A stretch of 64,000 nucleotides of DNA from Sumerlaeia bacterium. GTDB taxonomy: Bacteria > Sumerlaeota > Sumerlaeia > SLMS01 > JAHLLQ01. Under the pieces are notes generated by a model. It searched no databases and was not told the origin of the DNA. It was given only the letters and a program-made list of their open reading frames with translations. How positions within the stretch are numbered: the stretch's first letter is position 1; every line of letters starts with the position of its first letter. Shown here piece after piece: positions 8,230 through 42,471 of this stretch. The DNA lies in NCBI GenBank assembly GCA_040219255.1, contig JAVJSW010000011.1:1-64000 (forward strand). Direction: 5' to 3'. The position numbers and the translations under genes were made by a program.

Positions 8230-10818
8230 ATGGGAGAGATCTTGACCGATTATCTACGATGGTTCCTTTGCGCCGCAGGCGTGTTCGTTTCCATACGCGT
8301 CGGAGCCATGGCGCCGCCGGTGGTTCTTGGACCCGCCGGCGCGAAAATCGTCCACTCCTATACGGAGGAACCGGAAGCGGCTTTTTCTCCGGCACCGGGC
8401 CGGACCTTGCCGGACAGGGCGGCTCCGCTTCCAGCCAGGGTTTACACAGGATACGGACCCGCGGAATTCCGCCTGCGCATCGATGGCGTGGAAGGGGACA
8501 CTTCCGACCCCCTTTTCCTGCATTACGCCGCCTCGCCGGTCGAACTGGCCGGACGAGGCGCTCGCGAGACCGCTTCCCTGGCGATATACGAACTGCGGGC
8601 CGGAGGGGTTCTGATCGACCGGGGTTTGATGAATCCCAATTTGCCCGGACAGAGCGGGACCTGGGTTCTCCTGAGCGGAAAGCCGGTTCTCCCTTCCCCG
8701 GGCGTCGCCGTGGAACTGCGCGTCTTTCTGCCTTCCTTCGAAGGTGCCGGAGAATTCGGTTACGGCACGCTCTATGCCGGCGGATTCTACCTGAGCCCAC
8801 GGCCAGAGGGAACTCTTTCTCCACCGGCGATGATGGATTTGGCGCGGGGCCTTCCAGACATGGCGCGCGCTTTGGAAGAGCGCTTGGCGGAAAGCACCGA
8901 CCGGGCCACCGGCGAAAATGATCTCGACGCTCTCGCTCTTGCCGATTTGATAGCCTACCGTCTCATGGAGGAGGAGGGAGTGCTTGGCCTCGACGTTCTC
9001 GAACGGCATCCGATCATGGGCCAGGCGTATCGCTCGGCCACCGGGGAGCGCACCCTTCCTTTGCCTTTCTCGATCGATAGGGGAGTAGCCCGGGTCAGCG
9101 AAACGGACGAGTTGACCTTTGGAGTTCATCCGTCCCTGCTGCTGGGGTTCATGAGGACGGGGGTTGCGGAGGCCGCCAGCGATTCGGGCGAAGCGGCTCA
9201 CCCAGCCATCGCCCGGGTCATACCCGCTTCCCCTGCCGGTGAGATCTCGGGCGCCTGCTGTGACCCCGCCTTTCCAGAGAGCGAGCGGGAGATGCGGCGC
9301 GGTCTGAGAGCGGCCGTGCTGGCAATGGACGAATCCACTTTGAGGGAGTTGGGACAACAGGCCGCCGGGAATCCAAACGGAGCCCTGGCACGGGCCATGG
9401 GCGAGGAAAGCCTCTGGCTCTGGGCCGCGTTCCCCAATCGGCTCCCTGTTCTCGAGTCCTTTCGGGAAGGCGCCGAGTCGGCAGCCGTGGAAACGCCGCT
9501 GGGCCGCATGCTCGCCGTGATGGAACCAGGCTTCATTTCGCCCTTGGAAGCCAGCCAGCGCGTGGCTCGGGTACGGTCCGAGGTCATCGAAGCGGGAGAT
9601 GGCCGATCCGGCGGGGAATGCGCGGACGCGGGCTCTCGGCTCCGCATTTGGCGTGCTACCGCCGACTTGGCGCGAACGATCGAGGAAGCGAGAACCCTCG
9701 GCGCGGGCGACCTGGTGGCCACCGCGCAACCGGCGGTCAGCACGCTCTGGACTGATTTCGCAAGCCCGGCCGGTGCCTCCATTCCAGCGCCTCTTCCCTT
9801 ATTGCTCATGGTACGCGCCGCTCTCCAGACGGATTTGGCAGAACGTTTTTCCCGCGACAGTTTGTCCACCGAGCAAGGAGGATACGTGGCGAGCCGCCGG
9901 CTGGCCGCCTTCCGGTCGCTCTTTCTGCACTTGATCGAATCGGAACGGGAAGCGGGCTGCGCCGGCCAACACCTGGGACAGACTTGGGAACGGCTCGCCT
10001 CCTTGGCGCTTCTCGAAGCCCTTCGGGATCTGCAAGCCGCGCTTGCCGGCGAAAACCCAGAAGCCTTTCACCGCTATGCGGCCTACCTGGAAAAAGAGCT
10101 TCCAGTCTTCGTGGAGCACCGCGAGCTGGAGGAGGCCTCCGCCTGGCTGGACCAAGAAGTCAGCCCCCGGCTGGCTTCCCTGCCGGCCGAGCGCGTCGCC
10201 GCCTATCATGCCCATCGCGCCCGTCTGCTGCAAAACATCAAAGGATCGAACGACGCGGTTCGCGAGAACCTGGAACGAGTGGCGGAAATTCAACCCGGAA
10301 CCCAGTTGGCCTTCGAGTCCCTGACCCGCCTCTCCGAACTCTACAAGGAATCTTGGGACTTGCCGGAAGAAGCGATCGAGGTGCAGCGGGAAATCGCCGA
10401 ACAATTCGCCGGCGAGAGCAGGGGGTGGAGCGCCGCGTTCAATGTGGCGAAGTTCAATTACGAAGAGAAGAAATACGAACGCGCCCTCTATGAATTGACC
10501 GTACTTGGGGAAACTCTTCCCGAGGCCTACGACCGGCAACCCATCCACCTGCTCAGCGGCATGAGCTATCTGGCGCTCAGCGACATGGAATCGGCGCGCA
10601 ATCAGTTCGCGCGAGTCGTCAACGCCGGCGACGACACGCGGCGCGAGCAGGCCCTCTACCTGATGGCCTACACGCACATCGTCGAGCAGGATTACGATCG
10701 AGCGGTGCAACCGCTCAACGACTTGCTCATGCTCTATCCCAACGGCCAATACGAGCGGCAGGCCAGGCAGTGGCTTTCCCGCTTCGAGGCCTCTGCCGGG
10801 GCGGCGGCGGTACAATGA
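8230..10818 (+). CDS. large secreted protein with C-terminal tetratricopeptide repeats
   Basis: 922-aa ORF. Hydrophobic signal-like N-terminus if started at 8230. C-terminal helical repeats (ALYLMAYTHIVEQDYDRAVQPLNDLLMLYPNGQY) resemble CpoB/BamD-type TPRs. ATGA-coupled to the next gene. Confidence 0.7.
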   Translation: MGEILTDYLRWFLCAAGVFVSIRVGAMAPPVVLGPAGAKIVHSYTEEPEAAFSPAPGRTLPDRAAPLPARVYTGYGPAEFRLRIDGVEGDTSDPLFLHYAASPVELAGRGARETASLAIYELRAGGVLIDRGLMNPNLPGQSGTWVLLSGKPVLPSPGVAVELRVFLPSFEGAGEFGYGTLYAGGFYLSPRPEGTLSPPAMMDLARGLPDMARALEERLAESTDRATGENDLDALALADLIAYRLMEEEGVLGLDVLERHPIMGQAYRSATGERTLPLPFSIDRGVARVSETDELTFGVHPSLLLGFMRTGVAEAASDSGEAAHPAIARVIPASPAGEISGACCDPAFPESEREMRRGLRAAVLAMDESTLRELGQQAAGNPNGALARAMGEESLWLWAAFPNRLPVLESFREGAESAAVETPLGRMLAVMEPGFISPLEASQRVARVRSEVIEAGDGRSGGECADAGSRLRIWRATADLARTIEEARTLGAGDLVATAQPAVSTLWTDFASPAGASIPAPLPLLLMVRAALQTDLAERFSRDSLSTEQGGYVASRRLAAFRSLFLHLIESEREAGCAGQHLGQTWERLASLALLEALRDLQAALAGENPEAFHRYAAYLEKELPVFVEHRELEEASAWLDQEVSPRLASLPAERVAAYHAHRARLLQNIKGSNDAVRENLERVAEIQPGTQLAFESLTRLSELYKESWDLPEEAIEVQREIAEQFAGESRGWSAAFNVAKFNYEEKKYERALYELTVLGETLPEAYDRQPIHLLSGMSYLALSDMESARNQFARVVNAGDDTRREQALYLMAYTHIVEQDYDRAVQPLNDLLMLYPNGQYERQARQWLSRFEASAGAAAVQ

Positions 10819-13142
10819 ATCGGACCGGTTTCGCCGCCGCGTTTTGGGTCGTTCTCCTCACGGCGCCCCTGCTGGCTCGGGCGCCGGTGCGTTTGTGGGT
10901 GGAAGCGGAGGGCTTCACGACTTCGACCGAGACCGTTCGGACCGGCGCGGCGGCCTTTCTGACATCCACCACGCCCCTTGAAGAATCCTATCAGCGCGGT
11001 CTCGAGTCCGCATCTCAAGTGGTGCTGAACCAAGAAGAAGGCCAGCGGATTTCCGGCGAACGATACATCTGGAATTACGAGTCCCTTTCCGCTTTCAACG
11101 AAGGCCAGCGCCGTGGCGACGCCCCGATGAGCCTCGCCTACACGGTTTCCGTTCCCCAGGACGACGATTATTACCTCTGGGTTCGCCTCAGCAATCCTCC
11201 GCCCTGTTACTCCCATTTCGGAGCATGGTTCGGCGACGCCGATCCCGGGGAAGGCATGGACCTCCTCAGCGGCACCGTCGCGGTCTGGGTTTGGTGGGGT
11301 TGGGGGACGAACTACAACGATGGCGAAATGGTTCCCTTTCGCCTGACCGCGGGCGAGCACACCCTCCGTTTCGGCTATGCCAAGGGCCCGGTGCGCCTCG
11401 ACAAGTTCCTTCTCACCAACGATCCCGCCTACGTTCCCTTCGGAGCGGGAACAAGCCACTATACCCGAACCTTCGAACCCTCACACTGGAGCGCCTCCGG
11501 CCACGGTCACGGAGAGATGTTGCCGGCCTCCGACTCCGGCTGGCTCGCTGATCCACGGGCGCGATGGCGTGTCGAACAGGACGCCGCCAAGGGCAATCAC
11601 CTCTACGCCGTTCAGCCCACGGCCAATGACCAGAACCCGGACCTGGCGGTTTCCCTTGTGGAAGGACTGCAGCGCGATCTTCTCGAGGCGCGCGTTTCCA
11701 TCGAACGCCTTTCCGCAGACGCCCTGGTGCTTTTCGGATGGAACGGCCCAGACGACTTTGACGGGGTCCGGATCGAGAATGGCCGGGTCGACCTCGTGAC
11801 GGTCCGGCCCGCCGCCGGAGAACGGGTCCTGGCAACAGCTCCGGTTCCAGGGGGCGAGACCGGGCGGCTCCGGCTGAAAATCCAGCGCGACCGCACCGAA
11901 GTCCGTGTTTTCGCCGATGGTCAGAAGATCATTTCCCTGCCCGGCGCCTTTCCGCGCCGCGGAGGCGCAGGCCTGGCAAGCCAAGGGGGTGGCGTCGCTT
12001 TCGATGACGCCTCCTTCGAGCCGTTGGCGAACAGTTCCGCTTCCTTCTCGCTTCAGCCGCTCGATGCCGCCGCAAAGGAGAATCTTCGGACTTTGAAGGG
12101 AGAACCGCTCTCCCAATCCTTGCCCGCCGATGGGACCCTACTGATCTACCAGGCTCCCGCCTGCTCCGATTGCGAATTGACCATCCCACTCCAGGATGAG
12201 CAGTCCGCCAATGAGGAGGAAGAGTTCGACATCCTCTTCCCCTACATGAGTCCCCAGGCGCACCTGACCCTTCGCGTCCGGCGCGGCGTCGGCTCGGTCC
12301 TCCTGACCGATGCCAAAGGCATCGAACTCGCCTCGGCCACGTGGCCCGACAATGGACGCGAGGCCCTCATTCGTTACGCCAATGGGGTGTACTCCCTGTT
12401 TGTGGACGGAGCCAATCTGCTGGAATGGAATGACTACGAAGGCATGGGGGCGGGAACCTTCGCGTTCTCGGCGAAGACTTCGGGAACCTTTCCAATTCGG
12501 AGCCTCAAATTAGAGCCGAGCCAGACCTTCGGCGACAACTTCGTGCTCACCGCCACCGCCAAACCAGGGCCCCAATGGACCGAGGTCGAGGGGCAATGGC
12601 GGGTCGTCCCAGCCAGCCAAAGCGGCGCTGACAATCGCGATGGTCAATTGGTCGCGACACAGCCCGGATTCCTGGAAATGGGCGAGGCGGATTGGCTGGC
12701 CGTTCAGTTGCAGACTTACCTGCTGCTGGATCAAAGCACAAAGGCAGGCTTCGCGGTTCAATCGCGCCCGGAAGAGGGAAAACGCCTGGAGGTCCTGATC
12801 TCCCCGACGGAATTTCTGCTCCAATATCTGATGCCCGATGGCAGCCGGTTGACCCACCTCGGCGGCCCCCTCGGCCCCCTTGATTCCGGATGGCACCGCC
12901 TCGCGTTCTCCGTGGCGGAAAACGGCGCGGCGCTCCTCGCGGTCGACGACCAGGTCGTCCTCCGCACGCAGCTCAATCCCTCGCCCGGAGCCGTCGGACT
13001 CGTCAGCGCCATTGGCGTCGCTGTTTTCGACAACAGCAGCTTCAGCGTTCTCGCCCGGTCCGTTGTATCGGAACGCGGGGAGGGGGAAAAGCAACTTCCC
13101 CTTCCCCTCCATATCGACCTCGATTCCATTCAACTTCAATAA
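10815..13142 (+). CDS. secreted multi-beta-sandwich protein (CBM6/35-like domain plus LamG/DUF1080-like domains)
   Basis: Signal peptide MNRTGFAAAFWVVLL; WVEAEG...YYLWVR...LTAGEHTL...LDKFLLTNDP jelly-roll; later GAGL...VAFDD and GAVGL...AVFDN domain ends. Confidence 0.7.
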   Translation: MNRTGFAAAFWVVLLTAPLLARAPVRLWVEAEGFTTSTETVRTGAAAFLTSTTPLEESYQRGLESASQVVLNQEEGQRISGERYIWNYESLSAFNEGQRRGDAPMSLAYTVSVPQDDDYYLWVRLSNPPPCYSHFGAWFGDADPGEGMDLLSGTVAVWVWWGWGTNYNDGEMVPFRLTAGEHTLRFGYAKGPVRLDKFLLTNDPAYVPFGAGTSHYTRTFEPSHWSASGHGHGEMLPASDSGWLADPRARWRVEQDAAKGNHLYAVQPTANDQNPDLAVSLVEGLQRDLLEARVSIERLSADALVLFGWNGPDDFDGVRIENGRVDLVTVRPAAGERVLATAPVPGGETGRLRLKIQRDRTEVRVFADGQKIISLPGAFPRRGGAGLASQGGGVAFDDASFEPLANSSASFSLQPLDAAAKENLRTLKGEPLSQSLPADGTLLIYQAPACSDCELTIPLQDEQSANEEEEFDILFPYMSPQAHLTLRVRRGVGSVLLTDAKGIELASATWPDNGREALIRYANGVYSLFVDGANLLEWNDYEGMGAGTFAFSAKTSGTFPIRSLKLEPSQTFGDNFVLTATAKPGPQWTEVEGQWRVVPASQSGADNRDGQLVATQPGFLEMGEADWLAVQLQTYLLLDQSTKAGFAVQSRPEEGKRLEVLISPTEFLLQYLMPDGSRLTHLGGPLGPLDSGWHRLAFSVAENGAALLAVDDQVVLRTQLNPSPGAVGLVSAIGVAVFDNSSFSVLARSVVSERGEGEKQLPLPLHIDLDSIQLQ

Positions 13143-13152: not shown

Positions 13153-14709
13153 ATGATGAAAAGTATCAACGCGTTACACTTGGCCGGCCCGCTTTGCTGC
13201 GCGGTTTTTTGCGCTCGCCTCGTCTCGGCGGAGGTGACCTTCACCGTCTCTCCCGAAGACATGCCTTTCGAGGAGAAGGCCGACTTCGTCTCCGTCTCCG
13301 GGACTTTCAACAATTGGGATCATTATGGCAGCCGGCTGGAATTCGACGGGGAAAAGTACACCGGCTCCTTCGATATTCCAGACGGAGAATACGCCTACAA
13401 GATCTATGCGAACGGGCCCTATGAAACCTGGTTCGCCGACCCGAATTCCCTGGCGAACAACGTCGCCGCCGATTTCGGCATGGAGAGCAAACTCTTCGTG
13501 AAGGATGGCCAGGCGGTTGTGCCGAGTGGTCAGTCGGGATGGCAAGCGATCCAGCTCGACGCGCCGGAAGCCACGAACGTGGAACTGATGATCATCAGCT
13601 ATCAGAACGTCGAACCCGCCATCACCATGCGCAAGAATGCCGAAGGCGTCTGGGAATCGTGGCTAAGCCACGAGCGCGAAGACTTCGTTTACAACATTTT
13701 CCGGGACAATCAAGCCGTTCACGAGGAATGGCTGGGGCCCGATGGCAAGCCGACCAAACCGCAGGTCTACTCCGGTCAGCGCATGATGCCCTTCCGCCTC
13801 GACCTCGATCGGGTGGATCGGGTCACCGACCCCGGCGATGTGCGTCTCGTCACCGTGCGCGGCACCTTCAACTCCTGGCACCAGAGCGAAGGCCTTATCC
13901 CCCGCGTCGGCGAATCGGCCTTCGAAGGCAGCCTGCCGGTTTACGATGGCGAGCAGGCCTACAAATTCGTCGCCGTCCGCCAGGACGGACGTCTCATTCA
14001 CATCCCCGATCCAGCCGTCAACACCTACGCCCTCGACGGTTACGGGGCGGTCAATACCCTGATCGAGGCCAAGGAAGGCAAGGTCACCAAACCCGAGGGC
14101 ACTACCGCCTTCCGCCTGCGCGCCCCGAAAGCCGACGCCGTCTTCCTGACCGGCGACTTCATCGATTGGCGCCCGGACGCCGTGCCCATGCGCCGAGGGG
14201 AAGAAGAAGGCATCTGGGAAGCGCACCTGCGCGTCGAACCCCCGTACCGGTACCGCTTCGTTCTCGATGGCCGGCCAGTCCTCGACACGTCCTCCGAAGC
14301 GCGCGTCGAAATCGATCCGGATCACGGGCCGGTCAACGTCAGCGCCGCCGCCGAGTCTCTTCGTGGCCAGCGCGAAGTGCAAGAGCGGGAAGGCTTCGCG
14401 CGCTCGGCGGTGAACACCGGCGAAGTGACTCTCTCGCCCGACCCGCCCCGCAAAGGCCAGCCTCTCACCATCACCTACGCTCCCAAGACCGGCCCCCTCA
14501 TGGAGGTGAAAGAGATCATGCTCTACTGGGGCTACGACGACTTCCAGGATGAGCGATTGGTCGAAGGAGAGAAGAACGAAAACGGCATCTGGGAATATTC
14601 CGTTACCGTTCCGCCGCAAGCCACGGAAATCAATTTCGTCTTCAATGGCACCGGCGGAAAGTGGGACAATCGCGGAACCCTGGATTGGACCTACCCGGTC
14701 GAAGAATAA
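13153..14709 (+). CDS. secreted tandem glycogen/starch-binding module protein (CBM48-like x4 plus CBM53/25-like)
   Basis: Repeats VSVSGTFNNW..YAYK, VTVRGTFNSW..AYKF, VFLTGDFIDW..YRYRFVLDG, plus one degenerate copy; C-terminal ITY..LYWGY..INFVFN..WDN; no catalytic domain recognised. Confidence 0.8.
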   Translation: MMKSINALHLAGPLCCAVFCARLVSAEVTFTVSPEDMPFEEKADFVSVSGTFNNWDHYGSRLEFDGEKYTGSFDIPDGEYAYKIYANGPYETWFADPNSLANNVAADFGMESKLFVKDGQAVVPSGQSGWQAIQLDAPEATNVELMIISYQNVEPAITMRKNAEGVWESWLSHEREDFVYNIFRDNQAVHEEWLGPDGKPTKPQVYSGQRMMPFRLDLDRVDRVTDPGDVRLVTVRGTFNSWHQSEGLIPRVGESAFEGSLPVYDGEQAYKFVAVRQDGRLIHIPDPAVNTYALDGYGAVNTLIEAKEGKVTKPEGTTAFRLRAPKADAVFLTGDFIDWRPDAVPMRRGEEEGIWEAHLRVEPPYRYRFVLDGRPVLDTSSEARVEIDPDHGPVNVSAAAESLRGQREVQEREGFARSAVNTGEVTLSPDPPRKGQPLTITYAPKTGPLMEVKEIMLYWGYDDFQDERLVEGEKNENGIWEYSVTVPPQATEINFVFNGTGGKWDNRGTLDWTYPVEE

Positions 14710-14775: not shown

Positions 14776-15177
14776 ATGAAACGCATCCGTCTCCAGCACC
14801 GCGAAGTCGCCAGAGGCTATCTCCTCATCGAGGTTGCCCTCGCCACGCTTTTTATCTCGGTGGCCCTCGTGGCGCTCTACCGGTCGCTGGAAACATCCCT
14901 GGAAGCCCACCGCGCGGTCGAGTTTCAGCGCTATGCACAGGCGTTGGCGGATGACCGCATCGCCCGCGCGCGGGCGGATGGCTCCTATCGCGAGGGCCAG
15001 GAATCTGGGGCCTCGGGTGAAAACGACGCCTGGCAATGGACCGTCACGACCACGGCACTGCCCGTGCCGCGCACCTTTCGGCTTGAAATCGAAATCGCTA
15101 ACGCGAGCGGCGACAACTATCGGCGCGTAGTCTACCTGAGCCAGCACGCCCCGCAGGAGGGCGGCGGTGGCATCTAG
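14776..15177 (+). CDS. minor pseudopilin, GspI-like
   Basis: Prepilin cleavage motif RG|YLLIEVALA followed by a hydrophobic helix; 133 aa. Confidence 0.75.
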   Translation: MKRIRLQHREVARGYLLIEVALATLFISVALVALYRSLETSLEAHRAVEFQRYAQALADDRIARARADGSYREGQESGASGENDAWQWTVTTTALPVPRTFRLEIEIANASGDNYRRVVYLSQHAPQEGGGGI

Positions 15178-15790
15178 CATGAATCGCGGCGGCCGGGCCT
15201 TCACGTTGGTCGAACTGACGGTGACACTGGTCATCTTCTCCGTCATCGCTCTGGTTGGTGCGCGGGCTCTCTCGACCGCCTTCGAGGTCGACCGGGCGGT
15301 GGGCGCGCGGGCTCAACAGGGCCGCTCCCTGGTACTGCTGCGAGAACTCATCGCGGCCGATTGCGCCGCCTTGACCGCGCCCTCGCCAATCCCCGATTTG
15401 CCCTCATTTACCGAGGGCGTCTCCTCCGAAACGGGCGGCAAAGTCGTTCAGTTCGTGACACATCTACCTCCGCTGGCGGCGGATACCACGGCTCCGCTGC
15501 AAGCCATCTGCTGTATCGTCCAATACGAGACGGTCAAGGTCCCCCCCCTGGACCGGCTCATGGTAACCCGGTCGGTGATGTACTTGCTTCTCGACGGTAC
15601 AACGACGGAGCGCGAGTCATCCTTGATGGCGCGGGACCTGACGGTTTTTCGCATCGCTCCGGGGCAAACTTCCGAAAGTGGCTTGCCAAAGAGCGTCATG
15701 ATCGAACTGGCGTTCGAAACGAGCGAGCGGCAAACGATAGAGTACGCCTGGAGCGAACCCGTGTTCGTTCGTGAAGAGGAAAAAGAATGA
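15167..15790 (+). CDS. minor pseudopilin, GspJ-like
   Basis: RA|FTLVELTVTLVIF motif; follows the GspI-like gene; start may be 15179. Confidence 0.8.
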   Translation: MASSMNRGGRAFTLVELTVTLVIFSVIALVGARALSTAFEVDRAVGARAQQGRSLVLLRELIAADCAALTAPSPIPDLPSFTEGVSSETGGKVVQFVTHLPPLAADTTAPLQAICCIVQYETVKVPPLDRLMVTRSVMYLLLDGTTTERESSLMARDLTVFRIAPGQTSESGLPKSVMIELAFETSERQTIEYAWSEPVFVREEEKE

Positions 15791-16314: not shown

Positions 16315-16317
16315 TCC

Positions 16318-28617: not shown

Positions 28618-28795
28618 AGCCGTTGCCCCCCCCACCCCGGTGGCTTCCGCCGGTTGGCTTGAATGGGCCGCGCCGCGCAGGCCGGGGGTCCAAATTTGCC
28701 TTGGGTCTCTCTCGCGGCAATTGCAAAGATGAATAAACTCGTGAATCACACCCCGCCGGGTATAGACGTTGCCTTTTCGCGACAGGGAGCCATCG

Positions 28796-34203: not shown

Positions 34204-36284
34204 GAACAGCCTTCTCTCTTCCTAGCCCCTTTTCGTTCCAGCGGAGGATCCAGCCATTGATGACCGGTTTCCTGCTGGCCTTCCTTTTCCTCTCGCTGCC
34301 GCCGATCCCCGCTCAGGAACCCGTTCCCTGGCGTTCCACCGGCTCCCAATCGTCCACCGCTGGAAACGGCGGCGCGGCCGTCTCTGGAGAAGAATTGCTC
34401 GACCTGCGCGTTCCCGACCTGCCCTTGCAAACAGTTCTGGGCATGTTGGCGAACGCGAGCCCCAAGACCCTGATCCTCGGCGATGGGGTGAAGCAGACGA
34501 AGGTGACCGCGTTCTTCGAGAATGTGACCTTCCGCCAGGCCCTGGACTCTTTGGCGTCGGCCTACCAGCTCGAAATCGTCGAAACCGATTCCGCCATTCT
34601 TCTTCTCTCGCGCCGCGACTACATGAATCAATACGCCGAGACGCGCGTCGTCACGGTCGAGAACGCCAGCCCGGAAGCCCTCGCCGAATCGCTCAACAAG
34701 ACCGTCACCTCTCCCGACGAACTGATCCGCATCACGGCAGACCCGAGAGCCCGGGCTCTGATTCTGCGCGGGACCCCGGAGCGCATCGCCCACTACGAGG
34801 CTCTGGCGAGCCAACTGGACTCGGACCTGGAGACGCGCGTGATTCAGGTCCGTTTCGGTTCGGCCGAATCCATCGCCAAGGATTTGCGCGAAGTCCTTCT
34901 CCTCTCGGCCAATAGCCTCGGCGGAATCGTCGTGGACGATCGCAGCAACCGGATCATCGTCACCGAGAAGGCCAACAAAATGAGCCGGGCCCTGGACTTC
35001 ATTCGCGAAGTGGACGTCCCCGTGGAAACCCGCGTGTTCAGCACCGGCCGGGTCGATCCTCAGCAACTCGCCGAACGCATCCAGCGCGGGGAACTGGGAG
35101 CGCCAGCCGCCGAAGGGGGCGCCCGTGGCCGCACCACGACCAATGTCCAGGTGGTCGAAGGAGCGAATCAGATCATCGTGACCGACACGCCGGAACGGCT
35201 CGACAATCTCGCCAAAGTCATGAACGAAATTCAGGGAAACCTGACGTCGCGCGTCTTTTCTCCGATGAACTCCCTCGCCGGCGAAAATGCCTCCATCGTC
35301 ACCGATGCCTTTCCTCAGGTCCTGGCGAGCGTCGACTCACGCACCAATTCGCTGATCCTGACCGGTGAGCGCCAGCAGGTCGACATGGCCTACGCGCTGC
35401 TCCAGGAGCGCGACCAAGTCACCAATATCCAGGTCGAAATCGAAGCGAAAATCCTGCTGGTGGCGACCCGCAAAATCCAGGACATCGGATGGCGCATCTA
35501 CGGAAGCGACTTCAACGGTCTGGACGAGACTTTCGTGGATGGGACCATCAATCCCAATTTCCCGGCGGATGGCCCCAAGCCCATCGGCAGCGTCCTCGGC
35601 AATCCTCCCGGCGGTCCCATCGACAACCCGATCAAGACGACGAACAACTACCTGGAGGTGATCCAGCCGAACGTCCAGGCCAACGCCGTCATCCGGGCGC
35701 TGGAGGAGGACCGCGACACCGAGCTGCTTTCCAATCCCACCATCCGTATGCTGGTGGGCAATACCTCGGAGATTTTCTCCGGTTCCCGCGAACCTTACCG
35801 CGAGACCACCCTGCAAAACGAAGTCGCTATCGAGAACGTTCAGTTCATCGATGTCGGCGTTACTTTTGAAGTCACACCCACCGTCAATTCGGAAAACCTG
35901 CTGACCTTGGACGTTCGCACCGAATTCAGCAATCTGGCCGAAGTGCGCGACGGAATTCCCGTGGTGGAAACCCGCCGCGCCAACTCGATCGTCGAAGTCG
36001 AAGACGGCGAAACGATCTTCCTCGGCGGATTGATTACCCGCGATAAGCAAAACACTGACTCCGGACTTCCCTTCATCAAGCGCGTGCCCATCATCGGTAA
36101 CCTCTTCAAGGAGAAGCGTCAACGCGACGACACCCGCGAACTGGTGATCATTCTCCGTCCTCGAATTCAACAAACCCGAAAAGACGCCGATGACTTGCCG
36201 GAAGATTACTTTCTGGCTCCACCGGCCCTCGAACGCGACGTCCGCGAGCGCGAAGAACGGGCGGGAAAGCGGTTGGAGCAGTGA
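34200..36284 (+). CDS. gspD: secretin (GspD/PilQ family)
   Basis: Repeated N domains (VDDRSNRIIV, VDSRTNSLIL), QVEIEAKI, DVGVTFEVTP, DGETIFLGGL, GLPFIKRVPIIGNLF, ELVIILRPRI. Confidence 0.93.
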   Translation: MRTAFSLPSPFSFQRRIQPLMTGFLLAFLFLSLPPIPAQEPVPWRSTGSQSSTAGNGGAAVSGEELLDLRVPDLPLQTVLGMLANASPKTLILGDGVKQTKVTAFFENVTFRQALDSLASAYQLEIVETDSAILLLSRRDYMNQYAETRVVTVENASPEALAESLNKTVTSPDELIRITADPRARALILRGTPERIAHYEALASQLDSDLETRVIQVRFGSAESIAKDLREVLLLSANSLGGIVVDDRSNRIIVTEKANKMSRALDFIREVDVPVETRVFSTGRVDPQQLAERIQRGELGAPAAEGGARGRTTTNVQVVEGANQIIVTDTPERLDNLAKVMNEIQGNLTSRVFSPMNSLAGENASIVTDAFPQVLASVDSRTNSLILTGERQQVDMAYALLQERDQVTNIQVEIEAKILLVATRKIQDIGWRIYGSDFNGLDETFVDGTINPNFPADGPKPIGSVLGNPPGGPIDNPIKTTNNYLEVIQPNVQANAVIRALEEDRDTELLSNPTIRMLVGNTSEIFSGSREPYRETTLQNEVAIENVQFIDVGVTFEVTPTVNSENLLTLDVRTEFSNLAEVRDGIPVVETRRANSIVEVEDGETIFLGGLITRDKQNTDSGLPFIKRVPIIGNLFKEKRQRDDTRELVIILRPRIQQTRKDADDLPEDYFLAPPALERDVREREERAGKRLEQ

Positions 36285-38023
36285 ACGGTTCCAAGACTGT
36301 GGACGCAGGCCAGGTCAGAGTGGGGGAACGGTTGGCCAAGGCCGGCGCCGTCGCGCAGGAGGCCATTCTCAGAGGACTGGCCCAGCAAGAAAGCGAGCGG
36401 CTGGCCACCGGCTCTCAACGTCCGCTCGGCGAAATCGTCTTCGAAATCACCGGCTCCTCCCGTCCGGAAATCGGCATGATCGTGGCCGAGGCCATCGGCT
36501 TTCCCTGGTGCCGGCCTGAAAAGGAAACGGTCGGCGAAGCGGCGCGTGATCTACTGCCTCCGCGCATGGCCCTCCACTACATCGCCGTCCCGCTCGCTTT
36601 CGATTCAGACCGGCGAGTCCTCACCCTGGCCATGGCCCGGCCCCAGGACCGGACGCAGCGCGACGAAATCGAAATGCTGCTCGGCGACTCGATCCGCATC
36701 GAACCGCGCTTCTCATTCCCCGCCTACATCAAAGAGGCCATAAACAAAACCTATGGCGTCGGCGCCGAGAGCATCGACCGCATGACACGGGAGATCTCTC
36801 TCGCCGGCGAAGAAGACGAGGACGCCCTCGCCCACGGCGCCGACAACAGCGAAGACGCGGCGATCATCCGTTTCGTCAATCAGATCATCCGCGATGGCTA
36901 TCGCCTGCGGGCCACCGACATTCACTTCGAACCGGGCGAGGAAAGCTTCACCATCCGCTATCGCCTCGATGGGCTTCTCGAGGAAATCAAGGTTCCGCCC
37001 GCGCTCCGCCGCTTTCGCGCCGCCATCACCAGCCGTATCAAGGTCATGGCTCAGCTCAACATCGCCGATCAGCGGCTTCCCCAGGACGGCCGGATACCCT
37101 TCCGCGTCGGCCACGACAAGTTCGACCTGCGCGTCTCGGTGCTTCCCACACCCCTCGGGGAAGCCATCAACCTGCGCCTTCTCCGGCGCGACACCGTCAC
37201 CTTCGGCCTCGCCGACCTGGGCTTCGAGGAGGAAAGCCTGGAAGCCCTCGTGCGGGCGTCGTCCAATCCCAATGGCATGATCCTGATCACCGGACCGACA
37301 GGCAGCGGCAAGACCACCACCCTTTATTCCCTCCTGCAAAACGTCAGCAAACCGACCGTCAAAACCATCACCGTCGAAGACCCGGTCGAGTACCGCCTGC
37401 CCGGCATCATTCAGCTCCAGGTCCACGAAGAAATCGGCTTCACCTTCGCGCGGGCTTTGCGTTCGATCCTGCGCCACGACCCGGACGTCGTCCTCGTGGG
37501 AGAAATCCGCGACACGGAAACCGCCGACATCGCCGTCCGGATGTCGATGACCGGCCACTTGGTCTTTTCAACCCTCCACACCAACGACGCGGTGGCGACG
37601 GTGGCGCGGCTCCTCGATATGGACCAGGAGCCCTTCATCCTGGCATCGACCCTGACGTGCGTGCTGGCGCAGCGGCTCGTGCGCCTTCTCTGTCCCGAAT
37701 GCCGGCGCGTGCATCCGGTGCCGGAGGCGACACAGGCTCTTCTCGGCCCCGAACACTTCGGCCCCGGAGCGGCCTTTTCGATCAGCGAAGGCTGCGAAGC
37801 CTGCCGCCACACCGGCTATCGGGGGCGGTCGGTGATCTACGAATTGCTGGAAGTGAACGACGCCATCCGCCGGCGCATCATGGAGCGCGCCCCCGCCGAC
37901 GACTTCCGAGCCGACCTGCGCGCCCGCGGCATCCCAAGCCTTCGCGACAACGGCGTCGCTCTCGCCCGGCGGGGAATGACCTCGCTCGACGAAGTGCTGC
38001 GGGTGACGCAGAGTGTGGGGTAG
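36281..38023 (+). CDS. gspE: type II secretion ATPase (GspE/PilB)
   Basis: ATDIHFEP, RLPQDGR, Walker A GPTGSGKT, TVEDPVE, Walker B VLVGEIRD, STLHTN, CPEC..CEAC zinc site. Confidence 0.96.
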   Translation: MNGSKTVDAGQVRVGERLAKAGAVAQEAILRGLAQQESERLATGSQRPLGEIVFEITGSSRPEIGMIVAEAIGFPWCRPEKETVGEAARDLLPPRMALHYIAVPLAFDSDRRVLTLAMARPQDRTQRDEIEMLLGDSIRIEPRFSFPAYIKEAINKTYGVGAESIDRMTREISLAGEEDEDALAHGADNSEDAAIIRFVNQIIRDGYRLRATDIHFEPGEESFTIRYRLDGLLEEIKVPPALRRFRAAITSRIKVMAQLNIADQRLPQDGRIPFRVGHDKFDLRVSVLPTPLGEAINLRLLRRDTVTFGLADLGFEEESLEALVRASSNPNGMILITGPTGSGKTTTLYSLLQNVSKPTVKTITVEDPVEYRLPGIIQLQVHEEIGFTFARALRSILRHDPDVVLVGEIRDTETADIAVRMSMTGHLVFSTLHTNDAVATVARLLDMDQEPFILASTLTCVLAQRLVRLLCPECRRVHPVPEATQALLGPEHFGPGAAFSISEGCEACRHTGYRGRSVIYELLEVNDAIRRRIMERAPADDFRADLRARGIPSLRDNGVALARRGMTSLDEVLRVTQSVG

Positions 38024-38030
38024 GGCTCGG

Positions 38031-39533
38031 ATGGTGCGCGTACCGCTCAGGACCCTTCCGCAGGCCTTCATTCACCTGGTCGTCCTTTTCGCTTTGCTCG
38101 CCTCCCACCTCCCAGCCCAGGGGGACCTCGCCGGTTTGCTGGACGAGTGGGAAGGTACCCCGAAGGAGGACATTGCCGACCGGGATCAGTGGATCGAGCG
38201 CTTCGAGGTTTTCCTCTCGATGCCCCACGCGGAAGCCGACGAGCCGCACGCCCGGATGGCCCTCGGCGGGCTCTACCTTGAGGAAGGGCAATATGCCGCG
38301 GCGCGCGATCAGTTCGACCGGGTGATCGATCATCCGGAAGCTTATCCAGAGCAACTGATCAACGCGCACGACCTGGGGGCGAAAAGCGCCTTCGAGGCGC
38401 GGGCGCCGCTGCCCGAAGTCCTCGCGTACTACGACGCGCTTCGGGAATTCCTGCCGGAAACCGTGGGCATGCAAGAAGCCTACCGCAACACGCTCCTCTA
38501 CGGAACGGAGCAGGTGAAGGGCGAAGTGGCCGAGCAGTACCTGGCGCGAGAGGTGGAGCAATCTGGCCCGTCGGACTCGGCGCGCGATGGTTTGGAACTG
38601 GCGACAAGCGCCTATCGCCGCTCCGCCGACCTGTTCCGCGAGCGCTTCGAGTCGGGGCAGGTTCCAGACGGTTTTTCGGAAACGCTGCTCAGGCAGAAGT
38701 TCATCATCGGCCTGGAGAAGCTGATAGCGTTGCGGGACAAAGCCGACCGTGAATGGCGCCTTTTTCCCACCACCGAGCACCAAGTGCAAAATCGGGAATT
38801 CGCACTCAATACGCTTCTGGAAGCGGCCTCCCTGCCGAGCGGCGTTCCCCAGGAACTGGGCGATGAACTCTACGACACCGCCTACGCCCTCTACGAACTG
38901 ACGGGCGACGGCGACGCATTCGTGGCGAATGTGAACCTGGCTTTGTCGATCAGCGAGCCGGGCCACGGGTTGATCAACAAACTGACGCGTTTCGCCACCG
39001 GTGCCACGGACCGGGGCGAGGTGGGTTTGGCGCTGCCGCTCCTTCAACGAATCGTCACCTATCAGGAAGAAAACTTCCCGGAGGACCACGAAACCTACGG
39101 CACCTACAAGTGGGCCGTGGTGGCGCTGATCGACACGCACTACCGGCTGGGAAATCTGGCGGCTGCGGAGCAGGTCGGCGAAAAGGCGGATCGCTTGGTT
39201 TTCGAAGGCGGGTACCTGCAAGAGTACTACGGCAAGATGGAGGAGCGGCTGGGCAAGTCCCGCAGCGAGGCGGTCGGCGGTCTGGGCCTGGAAGTGCGGC
39301 ACGATACGCCCCCGCTGACGAAGACGGAAGGTTCGGAGGAGGAACTTGCCACCCCTCCCTCCGACCCCGCCGCGCAACCCAAACCCGCCATTGCCGCGCA
39401 CTCCGCGTCGGCTTCGCCGCCGGGCCGCAGCCGGATGAATCTGCTGCTTGTCGGGTTCGCCGCGGCCGGGGCGGTGCTGGCCGTGGCGCTGTTCCTCCGG
39501 AAGCGTCCGGCTACTTCCTCAGCCCGGCGCTGA
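38031..39533 (+). CDS. exported TPR-like protein with C-terminal membrane anchor
   Basis: Signal peptide, helical repeats, Pro/Ala/Ser linker, TM LLLVGFAAAGAVLAVALFL, basic tail RKRP. Confidence 0.7.
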   Translation: MVRVPLRTLPQAFIHLVVLFALLASHLPAQGDLAGLLDEWEGTPKEDIADRDQWIERFEVFLSMPHAEADEPHARMALGGLYLEEGQYAAARDQFDRVIDHPEAYPEQLINAHDLGAKSAFEARAPLPEVLAYYDALREFLPETVGMQEAYRNTLLYGTEQVKGEVAEQYLAREVEQSGPSDSARDGLELATSAYRRSADLFRERFESGQVPDGFSETLLRQKFIIGLEKLIALRDKADREWRLFPTTEHQVQNREFALNTLLEAASLPSGVPQELGDELYDTAYALYELTGDGDAFVANVNLALSISEPGHGLINKLTRFATGATDRGEVGLALPLLQRIVTYQEENFPEDHETYGTYKWAVVALIDTHYRLGNLAAAEQVGEKADRLVFEGGYLQEYYGKMEERLGKSRSEAVGGLGLEVRHDTPPLTKTEGSEEELATPPSDPAAQPKPAIAAHSASASPPGRSRMNLLLVGFAAAGAVLAVALFLRKRPATSSARR

Positions 39534-40770
39534 GGCTGAAAATCGGCGTCAACATCGCCACCACAAGCAACCCCATCACCACCCCGACGGCCAAGATCAG
39601 GAGCGGCTCCAGATAGGTGAGCAGCTTCGATACTTGCTCGTTGGCCCGTTCTTCCATCGATTCGGCAGTGTCGAGGAGCAAGGCGGACAATTCGCCCCCG
39701 TTCTCGCCGATGCTGACAAGGTTGAGCACCGATTCGCTGAAGATGTTTTGGCGCCGCATCTCCGCCGAGAGGCGGTGGCCCCGCGACACGCCTTCGAGAA
39801 TCCGTTCCGCCGCCAGGCCGAAAACCGAGTTGCCTCCAACCTCGGCGCAGATGCGTAGGCTCTGGGGAACGGGAATGCCGCTCTGCATCAAGATCCCCAG
39901 ATTGCGCAGAAAAGCCGCTTCCTCAAACTGCCGCAGCACCTGGCCCCAGGCCGGCAGTTTGAGCCGGAGCGCTCCCGCGGCGGGGGTCTTGGCGAACCGG
40001 ATGGCGCCAGCCACCAACGCCACGAGGCCTAGGATCACCGCCGGCAGCAGCCAAACCTTGTGCCGATCGGCGATTTGTCCCACCCCGAGGAGCAGATCCG
40101 TCAGCCACGGCAAATCCGCATCGATTTCCCGGTACATCGAAACGAAGCGCGGCAAGATGAAGAAAATCATGATCAGGACCGAGAGGATTCCGAAACAAAG
40201 CACAAACGAGGGGTAGGCGACAGCGTGCCGCACGCGGGCCTTCAGCGCGATTTCCTGACGCAGGGAAGAAGCGATCCGCGCCAGGGACTCGGCCAGCATC
40301 CCGCCATACTCCCCGGCCCGTACGATGCGCACCTGAAAGGTCGTGAAACACCCGCAGGCGGCCATCGCGGCGGAGAGCTGCTGACCCTGGCGAACGCCCT
40401 TCGACAGTTCGCCCGTTATCCGCCGCATGTTGCCCTTGTTCTCCTTTTCCAGGCTCCGCAGTGCGCCCTCGACGTCCATTCCCGAACGCAGGAGTGAGGA
40501 CATGTTGCGGGCAAAGGCCATGACCTCGGCCTTCGTTGGCCGCGGCAGCGCGGCGGAATCACCCGACAGCCGCGAAATCTTTGGCCCCAGGCGGGCGAGC
40601 AGAGGCCTCAGCAGGCCCCCCGGCGAGGCGGCGTCGGCGATTCGCACCGGCAGCAGACCTTCGCTCATCAGCCGCGCCGCGAGAGCCTGACGCGAATCCG
40701 CCTCGCGCTCCAGGTGGCGGTCTTCCCCGGAATAGGTCTTAGCGTGTACGATGAACAGCGGCATGGCCAC
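39511..40770 (-). CDS. gspF: type II secretion platform protein F
   Basis: LLRSGM, GEYGG.L, AYPSFVL, FILPRF, LMQSGIP, GENGGEL, LEPLLIL..AMLTPIF. Confidence 0.95.
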   Translation of the reverse strand: MAMPLFIVHAKTYSGEDRHLEREADSRQALAARLMSEGLLPVRIADAASPGGLLRPLLARLGPKISRLSGDSAALPRPTKAEVMAFARNMSSLLRSGMDVEGALRSLEKENKGNMRRITGELSKGVRQGQQLSAAMAACGCFTTFQVRIVRAGEYGGMLAESLARIASSLRQEIALKARVRHAVAYPSFVLCFGILSVLIMIFFILPRFVSMYREIDADLPWLTDLLLGVGQIADRHKVWLLPAVILGLVALVAGAIRFAKTPAAGALRLKLPAWGQVLRQFEEAAFLRNLGILMQSGIPVPQSLRICAEVGGNSVFGLAAERILEGVSRGHRLSAEMRRQNIFSESVLNLVSIGENGGELSALLLDTAESMEERANEQVSKLLTYLEPLLILAVGVVMGLLVVAMLTPIFSLSAGLRK

Positions 40771-40866: not shown

Positions 40867-42471
40867 TCATTCCTGGCCCCTCGAAGCGGAAGACTTGTTT
40901 CGTCTCGCGGCGCGGAGGCGCTTGAAACCTTCGATCAAAACCGTCGTCTCGCGAACGCGCAACAAATTCAACAGAGCCCCATAGATCAGCAAGGCCAGAA
41001 GCAGCCGAGTCCCTAGCGAAGCCGCGCCCAGCAGAAAACCCGATCCGGCGGGAAGGGGGACCAGTTCGACGATGCCACCCGCGACAAGAACGCAAAACGC
41101 CACCTTGGCGCAAAAGAGGATCGCGCTCCGGTAGGGAACCCGAAAATCCAGCCGCCTCAGAAAGAAAATCAGGGTCGCCACTTTGACCGCTCGCGCGATC
41201 GGCAGATACAGCGCCACCCCGGCGATTCCAAAGACCGGTGTCAGAAACCAGATCCCGACAGCCCCGGCGAACACCCCCGCCAACCCGCAACCCACCGCCA
41301 GCACAATCCGCTGATGGCCCTGGAAGTACGTCACCAGCACCATCTCCAGAGCGAAAAACGGCATCCCCAGCCCCAAGGCCAGCAGGGCCGCGGAGGTGAC
41401 GGCGATGGAACTCTCGCCGAAAGCACCGTCGCCGAACAGCAGCGCCACGATGGTTTCGCTCTCCAAAACGTAGAAGACCGCGGCGGGCAGGAAAAGCACG
41501 AACAGAATCCGCGCAGACCCCACCAGATACGCCCGCGACAGGTGCAGTTCCTTTCGCTCGGCGAAATCGGAAAAATACACGAAAAGCACCGCCGTCAGCG
41601 AAGCGGGAACCAGCATCAGCGGCAGGTCCACCAACACCTGGGCGAACATCAACCCCGACACCGTGCCCGGCGGCAGCCCCGACGCCATGCGCGTCTGAAA
41701 GGCCCGCCCCGCTTGACTGACCACATTCCCCAAAATCGTCGGCCCCGCCAGCGCCAAAATCGCCCACACCGCCGGAATCCGAACCTTCAAAGTGGCCCAT
41801 TCGCCGAACCGCTTCCAGTGATAACCCGACAAAACCAGCAAGGGCACCAGCGCGGAAAGCCAATAGGCGACCACCAGAAAACTGAATCCATTGCGGATCA
41901 CGAACAAAAACAAGCACGCGATGAAAACGATCTTCTGCATGTGATCCGCCGAAGCGGCGAATTCGAAGCGCTTCTGCACCTGGAGCGATAAAGAAAACAA
42001 GTATGTCGTGCTGACGATAACGGACACCGGCAGCAGCGATTGCACCATCTCCACCGCCAATAACTGCTTGGATGCTGAAAACCCGGGGGCGAAGAATCGC
42101 ACAATCTCGCCGGTGAACAAGTAGCCCGGAACCAGGACGAAAGCGCCCGTACCCGCCACCAGCCAGAAGGCGGCGGAGCCCGTGGCGGCGGCATTCTCCC
42201 GGCCACGATTCCGCGCCGAAGACAGCAACGGAATCAAAGCCACATGGAAAACGCCCTTCAAGAAGAAGCTGGCCATCAGCGAAATTTGCAACGCCAAAAA
42301 CCAAACATCCATGGCGTCGCCCGCGCCGAACAGGAACGAAAGAGTCTTCTTTTCGGCAAAACCCAGCAAGCGCAGCAAGACCACCAGCAGGCTGAGAGCG
42401 ACAGAGGAATAGATAATACGTCTGAGCATGGAACGAATTTCTTGCCGAAAGTACCGCTCTTCCGCCGCCAT
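40867..42471 (-). CDS. MurJ/MviN-type lipid-linked glycan flippase (MOP superfamily)
   Basis: Many TMs; LRLLGFAEK..FGAG..MD, FAPGF, MASGLPPGTVSGL..AQ.L..LP, IVALLFGDGAF; start 42471 or 42429. Confidence 0.85.
   Translation of the reverse strand: MAAEERYFRQEIRSMLRRIIYSSVALSLLVVLLRLLGFAEKKTLSFLFGAGDAMDVWFLALQISLMASFFLKGVFHVALIPLLSSARNRGRENAAATGSAAFWLVAGTGAFVLVPGYLFTGEIVRFFAPGFSASKQLLAVEMVQSLLPVSVIVSTTYLFSLSLQVQKRFEFAASADHMQKIVFIACLFLFVIRNGFSFLVVAYWLSALVPLLVLSGYHWKRFGEWATLKVRIPAVWAILALAGPTILGNVVSQAGRAFQTRMASGLPPGTVSGLMFAQVLVDLPLMLVPASLTAVLFVYFSDFAERKELHLSRAYLVGSARILFVLFLPAAVFYVLESETIVALLFGDGAFGESSIAVTSAALLALGLGMPFFALEMVLVTYFQGHQRIVLAVGCGLAGVFAGAVGIWFLTPVFGIAGVALYLPIARAVKVATLIFFLRRLDFRVPYRSAILFCAKVAFCVLVAGGIVELVPLPAGSGFLLGAASLGTRLLLALLIYGALLNLLRVRETTVLIEGFKRLRAARRNKSSASRGQE

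Follow-up and report, generated by a model that had tools for sequence, protein, structure and literature searches.

At positions 8.2-42.5 kb of a 64,000-nucleotide stretch of Sumerlaeota DNA (hereafter the window), genes for a type II secretion system (T2SS) lie together with genes for glycosyltransferases, a flippase and lectin-like proteins, and it is this locus, and the relation between its two sets of genes, that we consider here. The window makes up the first 64 kb of a contig of 92 kb, which comes from a 5.35-Mb metagenome-assembled genome (MAG) of the phylum Sumerlaeota (BRC1), with a completeness of 92% and a contamination of 3.3%; we know of no cultured representative of the phylum. 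Thirty-five open reading frames (ORFs) between 6 and 45 kb of the window were scanned against Pfam and 30 against NCBIfam, and starts were refined from N-terminal sequence and with a codon-usage gene caller, several of those in the naive ORF list lying too far upstream. The matches place the gene families where an earlier annotation, made from the letters of the window and referred to below as the original prediction, had put them, with T2SS core and glycan genes sharing a locus of ~34 kb. A contig from an independent assembly of one public run spans the trx/femAB1 junction (16042-16725), and that run may be the source sample; one DNA run, at a depth of ~3-4x, contains 0.48 of the sampled words, and among the runs listed as containing them there is none of RNA.

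Loci were compared by tblastn and Pfam. Counts for the phylum refer to 75 genomes, among them that of the window (G000); G005, G010, G029, G042, G054, G055 and G059 are other Sumerlaeota genomes, L051 and L052 are stretches of metagenome contigs, other L numbers are stretches of G genomes, and C numbers are contigs. L051 (GC content 56%) is part of a 48-kb contig, Ga0315277_10000816, and the gene content given for it refers to that stretch. As for gene names, TPRbig denotes the large TPR protein, unk790 and unk349 two exported proteins of the window, trx a thioredoxin-like CxxC lipoprotein, GT4a to GT4d four GT4 glycosyltransferases, and the fusion a protein that joins a Wzy_C-like membrane domain to lectin-like periplasmic domains. 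The genes of the locus are the following.

8191..10818 (start 8191 or 8230), plus strand: TPRbig, with a hydrophobic anchor at the N-terminus and TPRs of BamD/YbgF-like type towards the C-terminus (TPR_6/YfiO below threshold); T2SS module.
10815..13142, plus strand: unk790, secreted and lectin-like, with a signal-peptide-like N-terminus; soluble paralogue of the fusion's periplasmic half.
13153..14709, plus strand: secreted CBM48/AMPK1_CBM/CBM53 protein with a signal peptide and alpha-glucan-binding modules (Pfam above cut-off).
14776..15177, plus strand: GspI-like minor pseudopilin (T2SSI 23.5 bits, cut-off 25; TIGR01707 below threshold).
15167..15790, plus strand: GspJ-like minor pseudopilin, assigned by position (N_methyl above cut-off).
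15787..16314, plus strand: trx, with lipobox LSGC and motif SCDHC (Redoxin below threshold); T2SS module.
16318..17313, plus strand: femAB1, FemAB-like GNAT 1 (Acetyltransf_6 53.4 bits, FemAB 37.7 bits).
17247..18512, minus strand: GT4a (Glycos_transf_1 127 bits).
18506..19693, minus strand: GT4b (Pfam Glycos_transf_1).
19738..20724, plus strand: FemAB-like GNAT 2 (Acetyltransf_6 55.2 bits), a paralogue of GNAT 1 at 33% identity.
20721..21812, plus strand: GT4c (Pfam Glycos_transf_1).
21809..23062 (start 21755, 21788 or 21809), plus strand: GT4d (Pfam Glycos_transf_1).
23120..26521, plus strand: the fusion of Wzy_C and lectin domains, 1133 residues (Wzy_C 40.4 bits, cut-off 31.7).
26586..26972, plus strand: small membrane protein of 128 residues with one hydrophobic segment and no Pfam family match.
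27033..28082, plus strand: unk349, periplasmic, with a signal peptide and a binding-protein-like fold (ESM Atlas); core of the glycan module.
28090..28617, minus strand: GspH-like minor pseudopilin, start refined (N_methyl above cut-off; TIGR01708 32.6 bits, cut-off 80).
28769..30151, plus strand: secreted DUF1573/Ig-like protein (DUF1573 62 bits).
30260..30721, plus strand: GspG major pseudopilin (equivalog model TIGR01710 93 bits, cut-off 88.85; T2SSG above cut-off).
30718..31797, plus strand: GspK-like protein, named by position, with an N-terminal hydrophobic segment.
31794..33221, plus strand: GspL-like assembly-platform protein (GspL_C 16.5 bits, cut-off 29.6).
33218..33748, plus strand: GspM (T2SSM 20.4 bits, cut-off 27.8; NF040576 below threshold).
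33745..34203, plus strand: GspC-like protein (T2SSC 21.4 bits, cut-off 27).
34200..36284, plus strand: GspD secretin with N-domains (Secretin 130 bits; Secretin_N in 4 stretches; TIGR02517 205 bits, cut-off 351).
36281..38023, plus strand: GspE ATPase (T2SSE 418 bits, with MshEN; TIGR02533 521 bits, cut-off 630).
38013..39533, plus strand: TPR2, a second TPR protein of 500 residues (TPR matches below threshold).
39511..40770, minus strand: GspF platform protein (T2SSF 180 bits, 2 stretches).
40867..42471, minus strand: murJ, a MurJ-family (MOP) flippase paralogue (MurJ 157 bits).

Overlaps of 4 nt (ATGA or GTGA) occur at 10 of the 21 listed consecutive plus-strand junctions, including those from gspJ to trx and from TPRbig to unk790; trx and femAB1 are spaced by 3 nt, and 96 nt separate gspF from murJ, which precedes it on the minus strand. 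The original prediction had read several of these features correctly, namely the overlaps (with that of gspJ and trx), the 3-nt gap before the GNAT gene and the co-oriented MurJ gene. Comparison of the loci divides these genes into two modules. The T2SS module comprises gspC-M, D, E and F together with trx and the TPRbig family; to the glycan module belong the fusion, the MurJ-like gene, GT4a-d, unk790 and unk349.

The T2SS is of the Gsp type, divergent but apparently complete (G, H, I, J, K-like, L, M, C-like, D, E and F). Secretin, Secretin_N, T2SSE, T2SSF, T2SSG and TIGR01710 score above their curated cut-offs, as does N_methyl on the GspJ-like and GspH-like proteins; among the models for minor pseudopilins and assembly proteins, those for H, I, L, M and C match below cut-off only, J is recognized by N_methyl only, and the GspK-like ORF has no match to any profile in Pfam or NCBIfam, Pfam yielding nothing usable up to E 5. 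For the weaker names (I, L, M, C, H and K) we relied on the order and size of the genes, on hydrophobic segments at the N-terminus of their products and on conservation in four further loci with a T2SS, those of G005, G042, G054 and L051. Identity to these loci is 66-72% for GspG and 36-42% for GspM; the GspI-like protein is conserved in all four and the GspJ-like protein has weak homologues in G005 and L051, while the GspK-like gene directly follows gspG in four of four, the GspL-like gene likewise stands at the matching position, and the GspC-like protein is conserved ahead of gspD. A prepilin peptidase is encoded outside the locus, by one Peptidase_A24 gene at G000:C7:50622-50813.

Two accessory proteins accompany the secretion genes. 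The C-terminal ~250 residues of TPRbig are conserved beside the T2SS in all four other loci, its homologues in G042 and L051 bearing Beta_helix with or without Laminin_G_3 (LamG); its N-terminal 700 residues gave nothing usable in Pfam up to E 5. Homologues of trx close the T2SS operon in G005 (where trx is fused to MauE), G042 and G054, and the CxxC lipoprotein of the original prediction is borne out by its lipobox and SCDHC motif. TPR2 has no homologue in the G005, G042, G054 or L051 loci. The T2SS-linked trx is fused to or lies beside a MauE/DoxX-type membrane protein at L031:8240-9142 (G005) and L042:17836-19133 (G042), which suggests that the two form a dedicated disulfide-handling pair for the secretion system.

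G000 has 20 T2SSE-family matches, six of them full-length and GspE/PilB-like, which is unusually rich for 5.3 Mb. In G005, G010, G029 and G055 the N-terminal prepilin segment of GspG has matches (E<=1e-5) in 25-52 separate genes of each genome, pointing to a large expansion of prepilin-type proteins there. An orphan GspG-like pseudopilin gene (N_methyl plus T2SSG) also lies in the window at 54227-54784 (minus strand), apart from any secretion operon.

Turning to the glycan part of the locus, MurJ, Wzy_C, four Glycos_transf_1 domains, two Acetyltransf_6/FemAB domains, CBM_48, AMPK1_CBM, CBM53 and DUF1573 all exceed their curated cut-offs. GT4a is the best-conserved enzyme of the module, with 41-45% identity to G005, G055, G029 and L051; in G005, G055 and L051 the next gene after the fusion is a GT4b homologue, GT4d homologues occur in G005 and on G055:C801, and on the latter contig a GT4c homologue (38% identity) adjoins the MurJ-like gene, the order there being murJ | GT4c-GT4d. 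G005, G055 and L051 have in common the order fusion-GT4b-unk349-GT4a. The module recurs as a set (GT4a-d, MurJ-like, fusion and unk349) in G005 and G055 and partly in L051. Conserved in these three and in L052, unk349 looks like a periplasmic solute-binding protein to judge from its nearest ESM Atlas clusters, which are ABC_sub_bind (0.93; structure TM 0.56-0.61 by query); Pfam up to E 5 gave nothing usable for it.

The MurJ paralogue is found at E<=1e-20 in 4 of the 75 genomes (G000, G005, G055 and, as a weak match, G059). G000 has a second, very divergent MurJ gene on C27, with neighbours that we take to be housekeeping genes (for example nusB and ruvB, named from their first 40 residues only). 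Since that other MurJ sits in a housekeeping-like run, the MurJ of the window can be regarded as an accessory flippase, and its occurrence indicates that it tracks the glycan module rather than housekeeping functions.

Other genes of the locus are peculiar to the genome of the window: the FemAB-like pair, the CBM48 protein, TPR2 and the 128-residue ORF. The 128-residue ORF has no Pfam match up to E 5 and no homologue in the G005 or L051 loci, and the CBM48 protein has no counterpart in the loci of G005, L051, G042 or G054. For the FemAB-like GNATs there is no homologue at the G005, G055 or L051 loci, only weak matches (28% identity) on other contigs. The original prediction had proposed an acylated oligosaccharide as the product of a dedicated machine; judged by these gene contents, acylation does not appear to be a conserved feature of the glycan, which weighs on that proposal. 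A homologue of the DUF1573 protein does stand inside the G005 glycan block.

Like WaaL, PglL, PglS and TfpO, the fusion has Wzy_C above the Pfam cut-off, ~10 hydrophobic segments taken as membrane helices and a large periplasmic loop with invariant Arg/Lys, Arg283, Arg287 and Arg315 being among the invariant residues of the protein; unlike them, it continues into ~650 residues of periplasmic CBM/ConA-like domains. Residues ~545-635 form a beta-sandwich for which CBM6/35 is a weak lead (ESM Atlas, residues 470-720: best 0.82, CBM6/35 rows 0.76; Pfam up to E 5 gave nothing usable for this middle domain), and residues 660-815 and 990-1133 form ConA-like/CBM66-like domains. The lectin half posited by the original prediction is supported in three ways: Pfam 3keto-disac_hyd at 27.2 bits (cut-off 26.8), a PDB profile match of the last domain to the CBM66 of B. 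subtilis levanase (E 1e-4), and Foldseek. The AlphaFold2 model, built on a 40-sequence alignment, has a mean pLDDT of 76.5, with the membrane domain at ~90 and beta-sandwich domains after it; its last domain matches CBM66 4b1m (TM 0.78 by target) as well as LamG/galectin folds, and with the whole 1133-residue model lectin folds alone are among the matches listed.

An exhaustive HMMER search of 1.84 billion proteins with residues 1-470 of the fusion gave 353 matches at E<=1e-3, 8 of them at E<=1e-30. The nine best matches are themselves fusions of 700-1157 residues, the copy of G055 among them, the next being standalone proteins of ~400-480 residues. (An earlier word-indexed search, with 2 proteins at E<=1e-10 among 8000 scored candidates, had understated the family relative to these ~9 clade members.) The canonical motif x-H-N-x-x-L-...-E-x-G, whose His is kept in 9 of the 10 other Wzy_C paralogues of G000, is altered in this clade: by sequence alignment, with no structural superposition, the His and Glu sites correspond to Gln361 and Ser370 in the fusion, and all nine clade proteins have Gln at the former and Ser or Thr at the latter. 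Of the best 150 of the 353 matches, 110 have Gln and 8 have His at the His site, and 148 have Ser or Thr at the Glu site. In PMC12800693, this His is proposed to act as the catalytic base in WaaL and PglS, with PglS H324A serving as an inactive control, and the Glu matches PglL E404, mutation of which strongly lowers activity. No NCBIfam model names the Wzy_C branch of the fusion, and we regard its Wzy_C domain, on these alignments, as belonging to a large uncharacterized branch of the superfamily. With the His/Glu pair replaced and the branch nameless in NCBIfam, 'ligase', the label used in the original prediction, is not a safe name. The fusion is the only Wzy_C-family enzyme in the locus, and its sequence does not separate a polymerase from a transferase.

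These residues bear directly on the mechanism that the original prediction had put forward, in which the fusion would be an O-oligosaccharyltransferase of the PglL/TfpO type, glycosylating pseudopilins or the exported proteins of the locus ahead of their secretion or in the course of it. With its glycosyltransferases, its flippase and one Wzy_C enzyme, and with no PCP/OPX gene in the window, the module does have the minimal logic of en-bloc O-glycosylation, and Wzy_C genes beside pilin genes are, as far as is known, the rule for TfpO-type systems. However, the change from His to Gln and from Glu to Ser/Thr throughout the clade, set against the His retained by nine of the ten other paralogues in the same genome, speaks against such an enzyme, and the fused carbohydrate-binding folds fit a glycan better than a protein as acceptor or ligand. 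Moreover, GspG from genomes with the module aligns end to end with GspG from genomes without it, and neither GspG nor the real coding parts of the secreted proteins show an added C-terminal Ser or Ser/Thr/Pro-rich stretch, which speaks against pseudopilins as acceptors, albeit as a weak test. We therefore consider this mechanism improbable.

The lectin-like half of the fusion has a soluble counterpart in unk790, which matches fusion residues 547-805 (BLASTP E 2e-11) and repeats the CBM-like plus ConA-like architecture of the periplasmic half without the membrane part; Pfam up to E 5 gave nothing usable for it. The gene stands beside TPRbig in G005 and L051 and travels with the fusion.

How are the two modules distributed across the phylum? 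The fusion (E<=1e-25) occurs in 4 of the 75 genomes, namely G000, G005, G055 and, as a fragment in two frames, G029; the orthologous secretin GspD (E<=1e-60) also occurs in four, G000, G005, G042 and G054. In family f1 the fusion, GspD and the MurJ paralogue are all present in G000 and G005, and none of the three is found in the other nine genomes. Wherever both modules were seen, that is in G000, G005 and L051, they are adjacent, in three different gene orders: interleaved in G000, and in separate adjoining blocks in G005 and L051. The link between T2SS and glycan genes that the original prediction described is not a one-off, as it recurs in a second genus (G005) and in L051, which represents a third, deeply diverged lineage, although 'interwoven' is true of G000 alone. 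T2SS, GT4, MurJ and lectin-like genes occur together in the linked set of G005; in two pairs of genomes, to which we return, the modules stand apart.

On contig C124 of G005 the modules are ~0.9 kb apart (MurJ ends at 36,945 and gspG starts at 37,860), the order being GT4d, DUF1573, GT4a, unk349, GT4b, fusion, unk790, TPRbig, two unknown genes and murJ, then gspG-K-L-M-C-D-E-F-I-J and MauE-trx. TPRbig, unk790, fusion and GT4b are contiguous and co-directional there, joined by one 20-nt gap and two 4-nt overlaps. In L051, gspI-J-G-K-L-M are divergent from fusion-GT4b-unk349-GT4a, with unk790 and TPRbig behind. Most orthologue pairs among the three lineages are 25-50% identical; the T2SS parts of L051 are nearest those of G042 and G054 and its glycan genes nearest those of G055, and L051 is not closely related to G000 or G005. 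Both L051 and L052 were found in a metagenome scan with the unk349 alignment; a metagenome scan with the fusion alignment gave 117 pattern matches, none of which was confirmed. The G029 copy of the fusion (L032:2430-4256, G029:C920), flanked by housekeeping-type genes, is matched in two parts that lie in different frames (query residues 189-362 and 356-691). Both ends of the protein are missing, which leaves a broken gene or an error of assembly as explanations.

Adjacency that persists through three gene orders at 25-50% protein identity, together with 4-nt overlaps between genes of different modules, is what functional coupling predicts. There is, however, a simpler scenario, in which the modules would be neighbours without joint function: an ordinary T2SS beside an O-antigen- or exopolysaccharide-like island, both carried on one accessory or mobile stretch. 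Each module does occur without the other, both are rare and patchy in the manner of accessory islands (four genomes of 75 each), the two form separate blocks in G005 and L051, a tRNA-Ala gene bounds the locus (43272-43347), and the 11 Wzy_C genes of G000 imply that glycan clusters are common in this genome. Mere neighbourhood sits less well with an adjacency that survived three rearrangements in diverged proteins, or with 4-nt overlaps and 3-nt gaps between genes of different modules; nor is there a clear foreign island, since with a GC content of 0.661, compared with 0.636 on average over the genome, the glycan block falls close to the 95th percentile for segments of 10 kb. We consider this scenario somewhat unlikely, if a serious contender. 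Conversely, judging by gene order and identity, the T2SS and the glycan module probably work together, and that they are functionally coupled in one way or another, all coupled readings taken together, seems to us reasonably likely.

Of the coupled readings we tentatively prefer, with a probability of about 0.4, one in which this is a rare accessory locus of Sumerlaeota whose T2SS would export lectin-like proteins onto the glycan made by the adjoining module. Gene content, domain folds and conserved adjacency in three diverged lineages are observations; from them we infer the coupling and each biochemical step that follows. The four cytoplasmic GT4 enzymes would assemble an oligosaccharide on a lipid carrier, with the priming transferase encoded elsewhere, and the dedicated MurJ-family flippase, to judge from its family, would move the lipid-linked oligosaccharide to the periplasm. 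There the Wzy_C-like enzyme would polymerise or transfer it, its ~650 residues of CBM/ConA-like domains perhaps holding the glycan or the acceptor. The T2SS would export unk790 and the LamG/beta-helix TPR protein, and in G000 the CBM48 and DUF1573 proteins as well. At the cell surface these exported lectin-like proteins may bind or remodel the glycan, giving a surface layer of glycan plus lectin.

Several observations weigh against this account. First, the T2SS of G042 and G054, accompanied by trx and three TPR proteins, has no glycan gene within ~20 kb, and the fusion is absent from both genomes; in G055 and G029, the glycan genes lie on short contigs that carry no T2SS gene. These last two are fragmented MAGs (G055: 78% complete, 840 contigs; G029: 1010 contigs), and no orthologous GspD or GspG was found in either assembly, the best GspG being 37-41% identical as against 66-72% for orthologues. 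Second, since G000 and G005 belong to one family and MAGs are incomplete, the adjacency amounts to at most two or three independent observations, which carry no statistic. Third, the chemistry of the fusion, as far as alignment tells, lacks the His/Glu basis of the ligases, and no priming phosphoglycosyltransferase is encoded in the window; elsewhere in G000, Bac_transf genes lie on C3 and C55 and Glycos_transf_4 genes on C72, C4, C42 and C46. Finally, it is wholly by inference that we take the lectin-like proteins as T2SS substrates.

Neither a chain-length regulator (PCP) nor an OPX/Wza exporter is encoded among the ORFs of the window, and the sole Poly_export gene of G000 lies on C46, beside another Wzy_C gene. 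This raises the possibility that the T2SS handles the glycan itself, a polymer or a lectin-glycan complex leaving through the secretin, driven by the pseudopilus, in place of the missing OPX/PCP proteins. The secretin is the only outer-membrane channel of the locus, a locus on C37 joins a Wzy_C gene to a GspE/MshE-type ATPase, and the cyanobacterial hps cluster offers a published precedent, as a hypothesis (PMC12288463). Against such a route, G042 and G054 keep the T2SS without the glycan module, which implies a glycan-independent job for the machine, and the lack of an OPX gene is equally explained by a glycan that stays anchored to a lipid or a protein. T2SSs are regarded as exporters of protein only, and we know of none that exports polysaccharide. 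Export of glycan through the secretin accordingly strikes us as a long shot. A small share of the probability goes to none of the readings discussed here, and we return to our preferred account, in which the T2SS exports proteins and the glycan module supplies what they bind.

Some further features of the genome touch on these subjects. G000 has 11 Wzy_C-domain genes, several in open frames of 860-1140 residues, which is unusually rich for 5.3 Mb. The C37 locus (G000:C37:53080-61591; L048:5080-13591), another case of a Wzy_C gene linked to a type IV filament ATPase, is an operon encoding a Wzy_C protein (631 residues, His kept), a GT4-like protein, PilZ, a GspE/MshE-type ATPase with MshEN, an MshEN-only protein and a secreted protein with a cohesin domain, a content that suggests a glycan or filament system controlled by cyclic di-GMP.

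At the edges of the locus, the bounding tRNA gene, tRNA-Ala(CGC) on the minus strand, lies directly beyond murJ and is followed at 43365-45336 (plus strand) by a radical SAM/SPASM maturase-like gene and then a Uma2 endonuclease-like gene with at least 6 paralogues in G000. Directly upstream of the locus, at 183-7669 (minus strand), are VWA_CoxE, DUF5682 (884 bits), an AAA_5 MoxR-type ATPase, DUF5691 and a SWIM zinc-finger protein. MoxR/VWA-type systems are discussed as conflict or regulatory systems, and this set is of that kind. In G042, a protein with the MoxR-vWA-beta-propeller domain bpX6 is encoded ~14 kb upstream of gspI, beyond the TPR genes.

What would follow from these readings? A whole T2SS together with a compact glycan module and lectins that mirror the periplasmic half of its enzyme, found in three diverged lineages, provides a gene set with which a link between secretion and surface glycan can be tested. 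For the Wzy_C superfamily, a large uncharacterized branch is now defined, with Gln at the catalytic-His site in 110 of the best 150 matches. Were the Sumerlaeota T2SS a glycan-handling type IV filament machine, its secretin and pseudopilus exporting the polymer of the His-less enzyme or lectin-glycan complexes in place of Wza/Wzc, which we think very doubtful, this would be the first case of polysaccharide export that depends on a secretin, and it would directly answer the question posed by hps and type IV pili in cyanobacteria. If the modules are mere neighbours, on the other hand, the locus is an ordinary accessory island in a little-studied phylum.

In the literature searched we found no paper on a T2SS with embedded glycan genes, nor one on a bacterial glycosylated pseudopilin, and, in line with the original prediction, no named system of this composition. 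The main text of the Sumerlaeota genome paper PMC8092238 contains no mention of pili, glycosyltransferase, exopolysaccharide, lipopolysaccharide or O-antigen, and has 'secretion' once, as the name of a COG category. Known systems nevertheless offer partial likenesses. With the classical Gsp T2SS (Pul/Gsp/Xps) the locus shares an N-domain secretin, GspE ATPase, GspF platform and GspG major pseudopilin, along with four more pseudopilin-like genes and others that resemble C, L and M, most of these genes forming a single operon with overlaps of 4 nt. It differs in that all parts except GspG fall below the NCBIfam equivalog cut-offs and the K-like protein has no profile match, in that gspI-J, gspH and gspF are cut off from the main operon by glycan genes, and in its conserved accessories, a large TPR/beta-helix/LamG protein and a thioredoxin-like lipoprotein. 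Wzx/Wzy-dependent assembly has in common with the glycan module four cytoplasmic GT4 enzymes and a flippase of the MOP superfamily; a priming enzyme, PCP/OPX genes and the ligase residues, which belong to that pathway or to en-bloc transfer, are absent from the module in the window.

Exopolysaccharide loci of the XrtA/PEP-CTERM kind share family types with the window, namely GT4 (best NCBIfam model TIGR03088), FemAB-like proteins (TIGR03019) and a Wzy_C-like 'putative O-glycosylation ligase' beside a protein-sorting machine. Yet TIGR03088 scores 113.9 bits against 409 and TIGR03019 27 against 260, the fusion does not match TIGR03097, the FemAB-like genes are not conserved in the related Sumerlaeota loci, and the sorting machine in the window is the T2SS (no search for exosortase or PEP-CTERM was made).

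A role for machines of the type IV filament family in the export or display of glycans has been argued, and is unsettled, for hormogonium polysaccharide: according to PMC12288463, minor pilin genes accompany a Wzx/Wzy system in the hps cluster, exopolysaccharide is lost when pilB or pilQ is mutated, and the export route is left unresolved. The window locus is not an hps member, since its GT4 matches to HpsO/HpsP reach 38.5 bits against cut-offs of 550-575. It has a whole T2SS rather than minor pilins only, a flippase of the MurJ type, a Wzy_C enzyme with lectin domains and no His/Glu pair, and no Wza-type gene nearby. What the two share are Wzx/Wzy-type glycan genes encoded with (pseudo)pilin genes, and by this analogy hps, as described in PMC12288463, appears to be the closest published parallel that we found, with glycan genes interleaved with those of a type IV filament machine.

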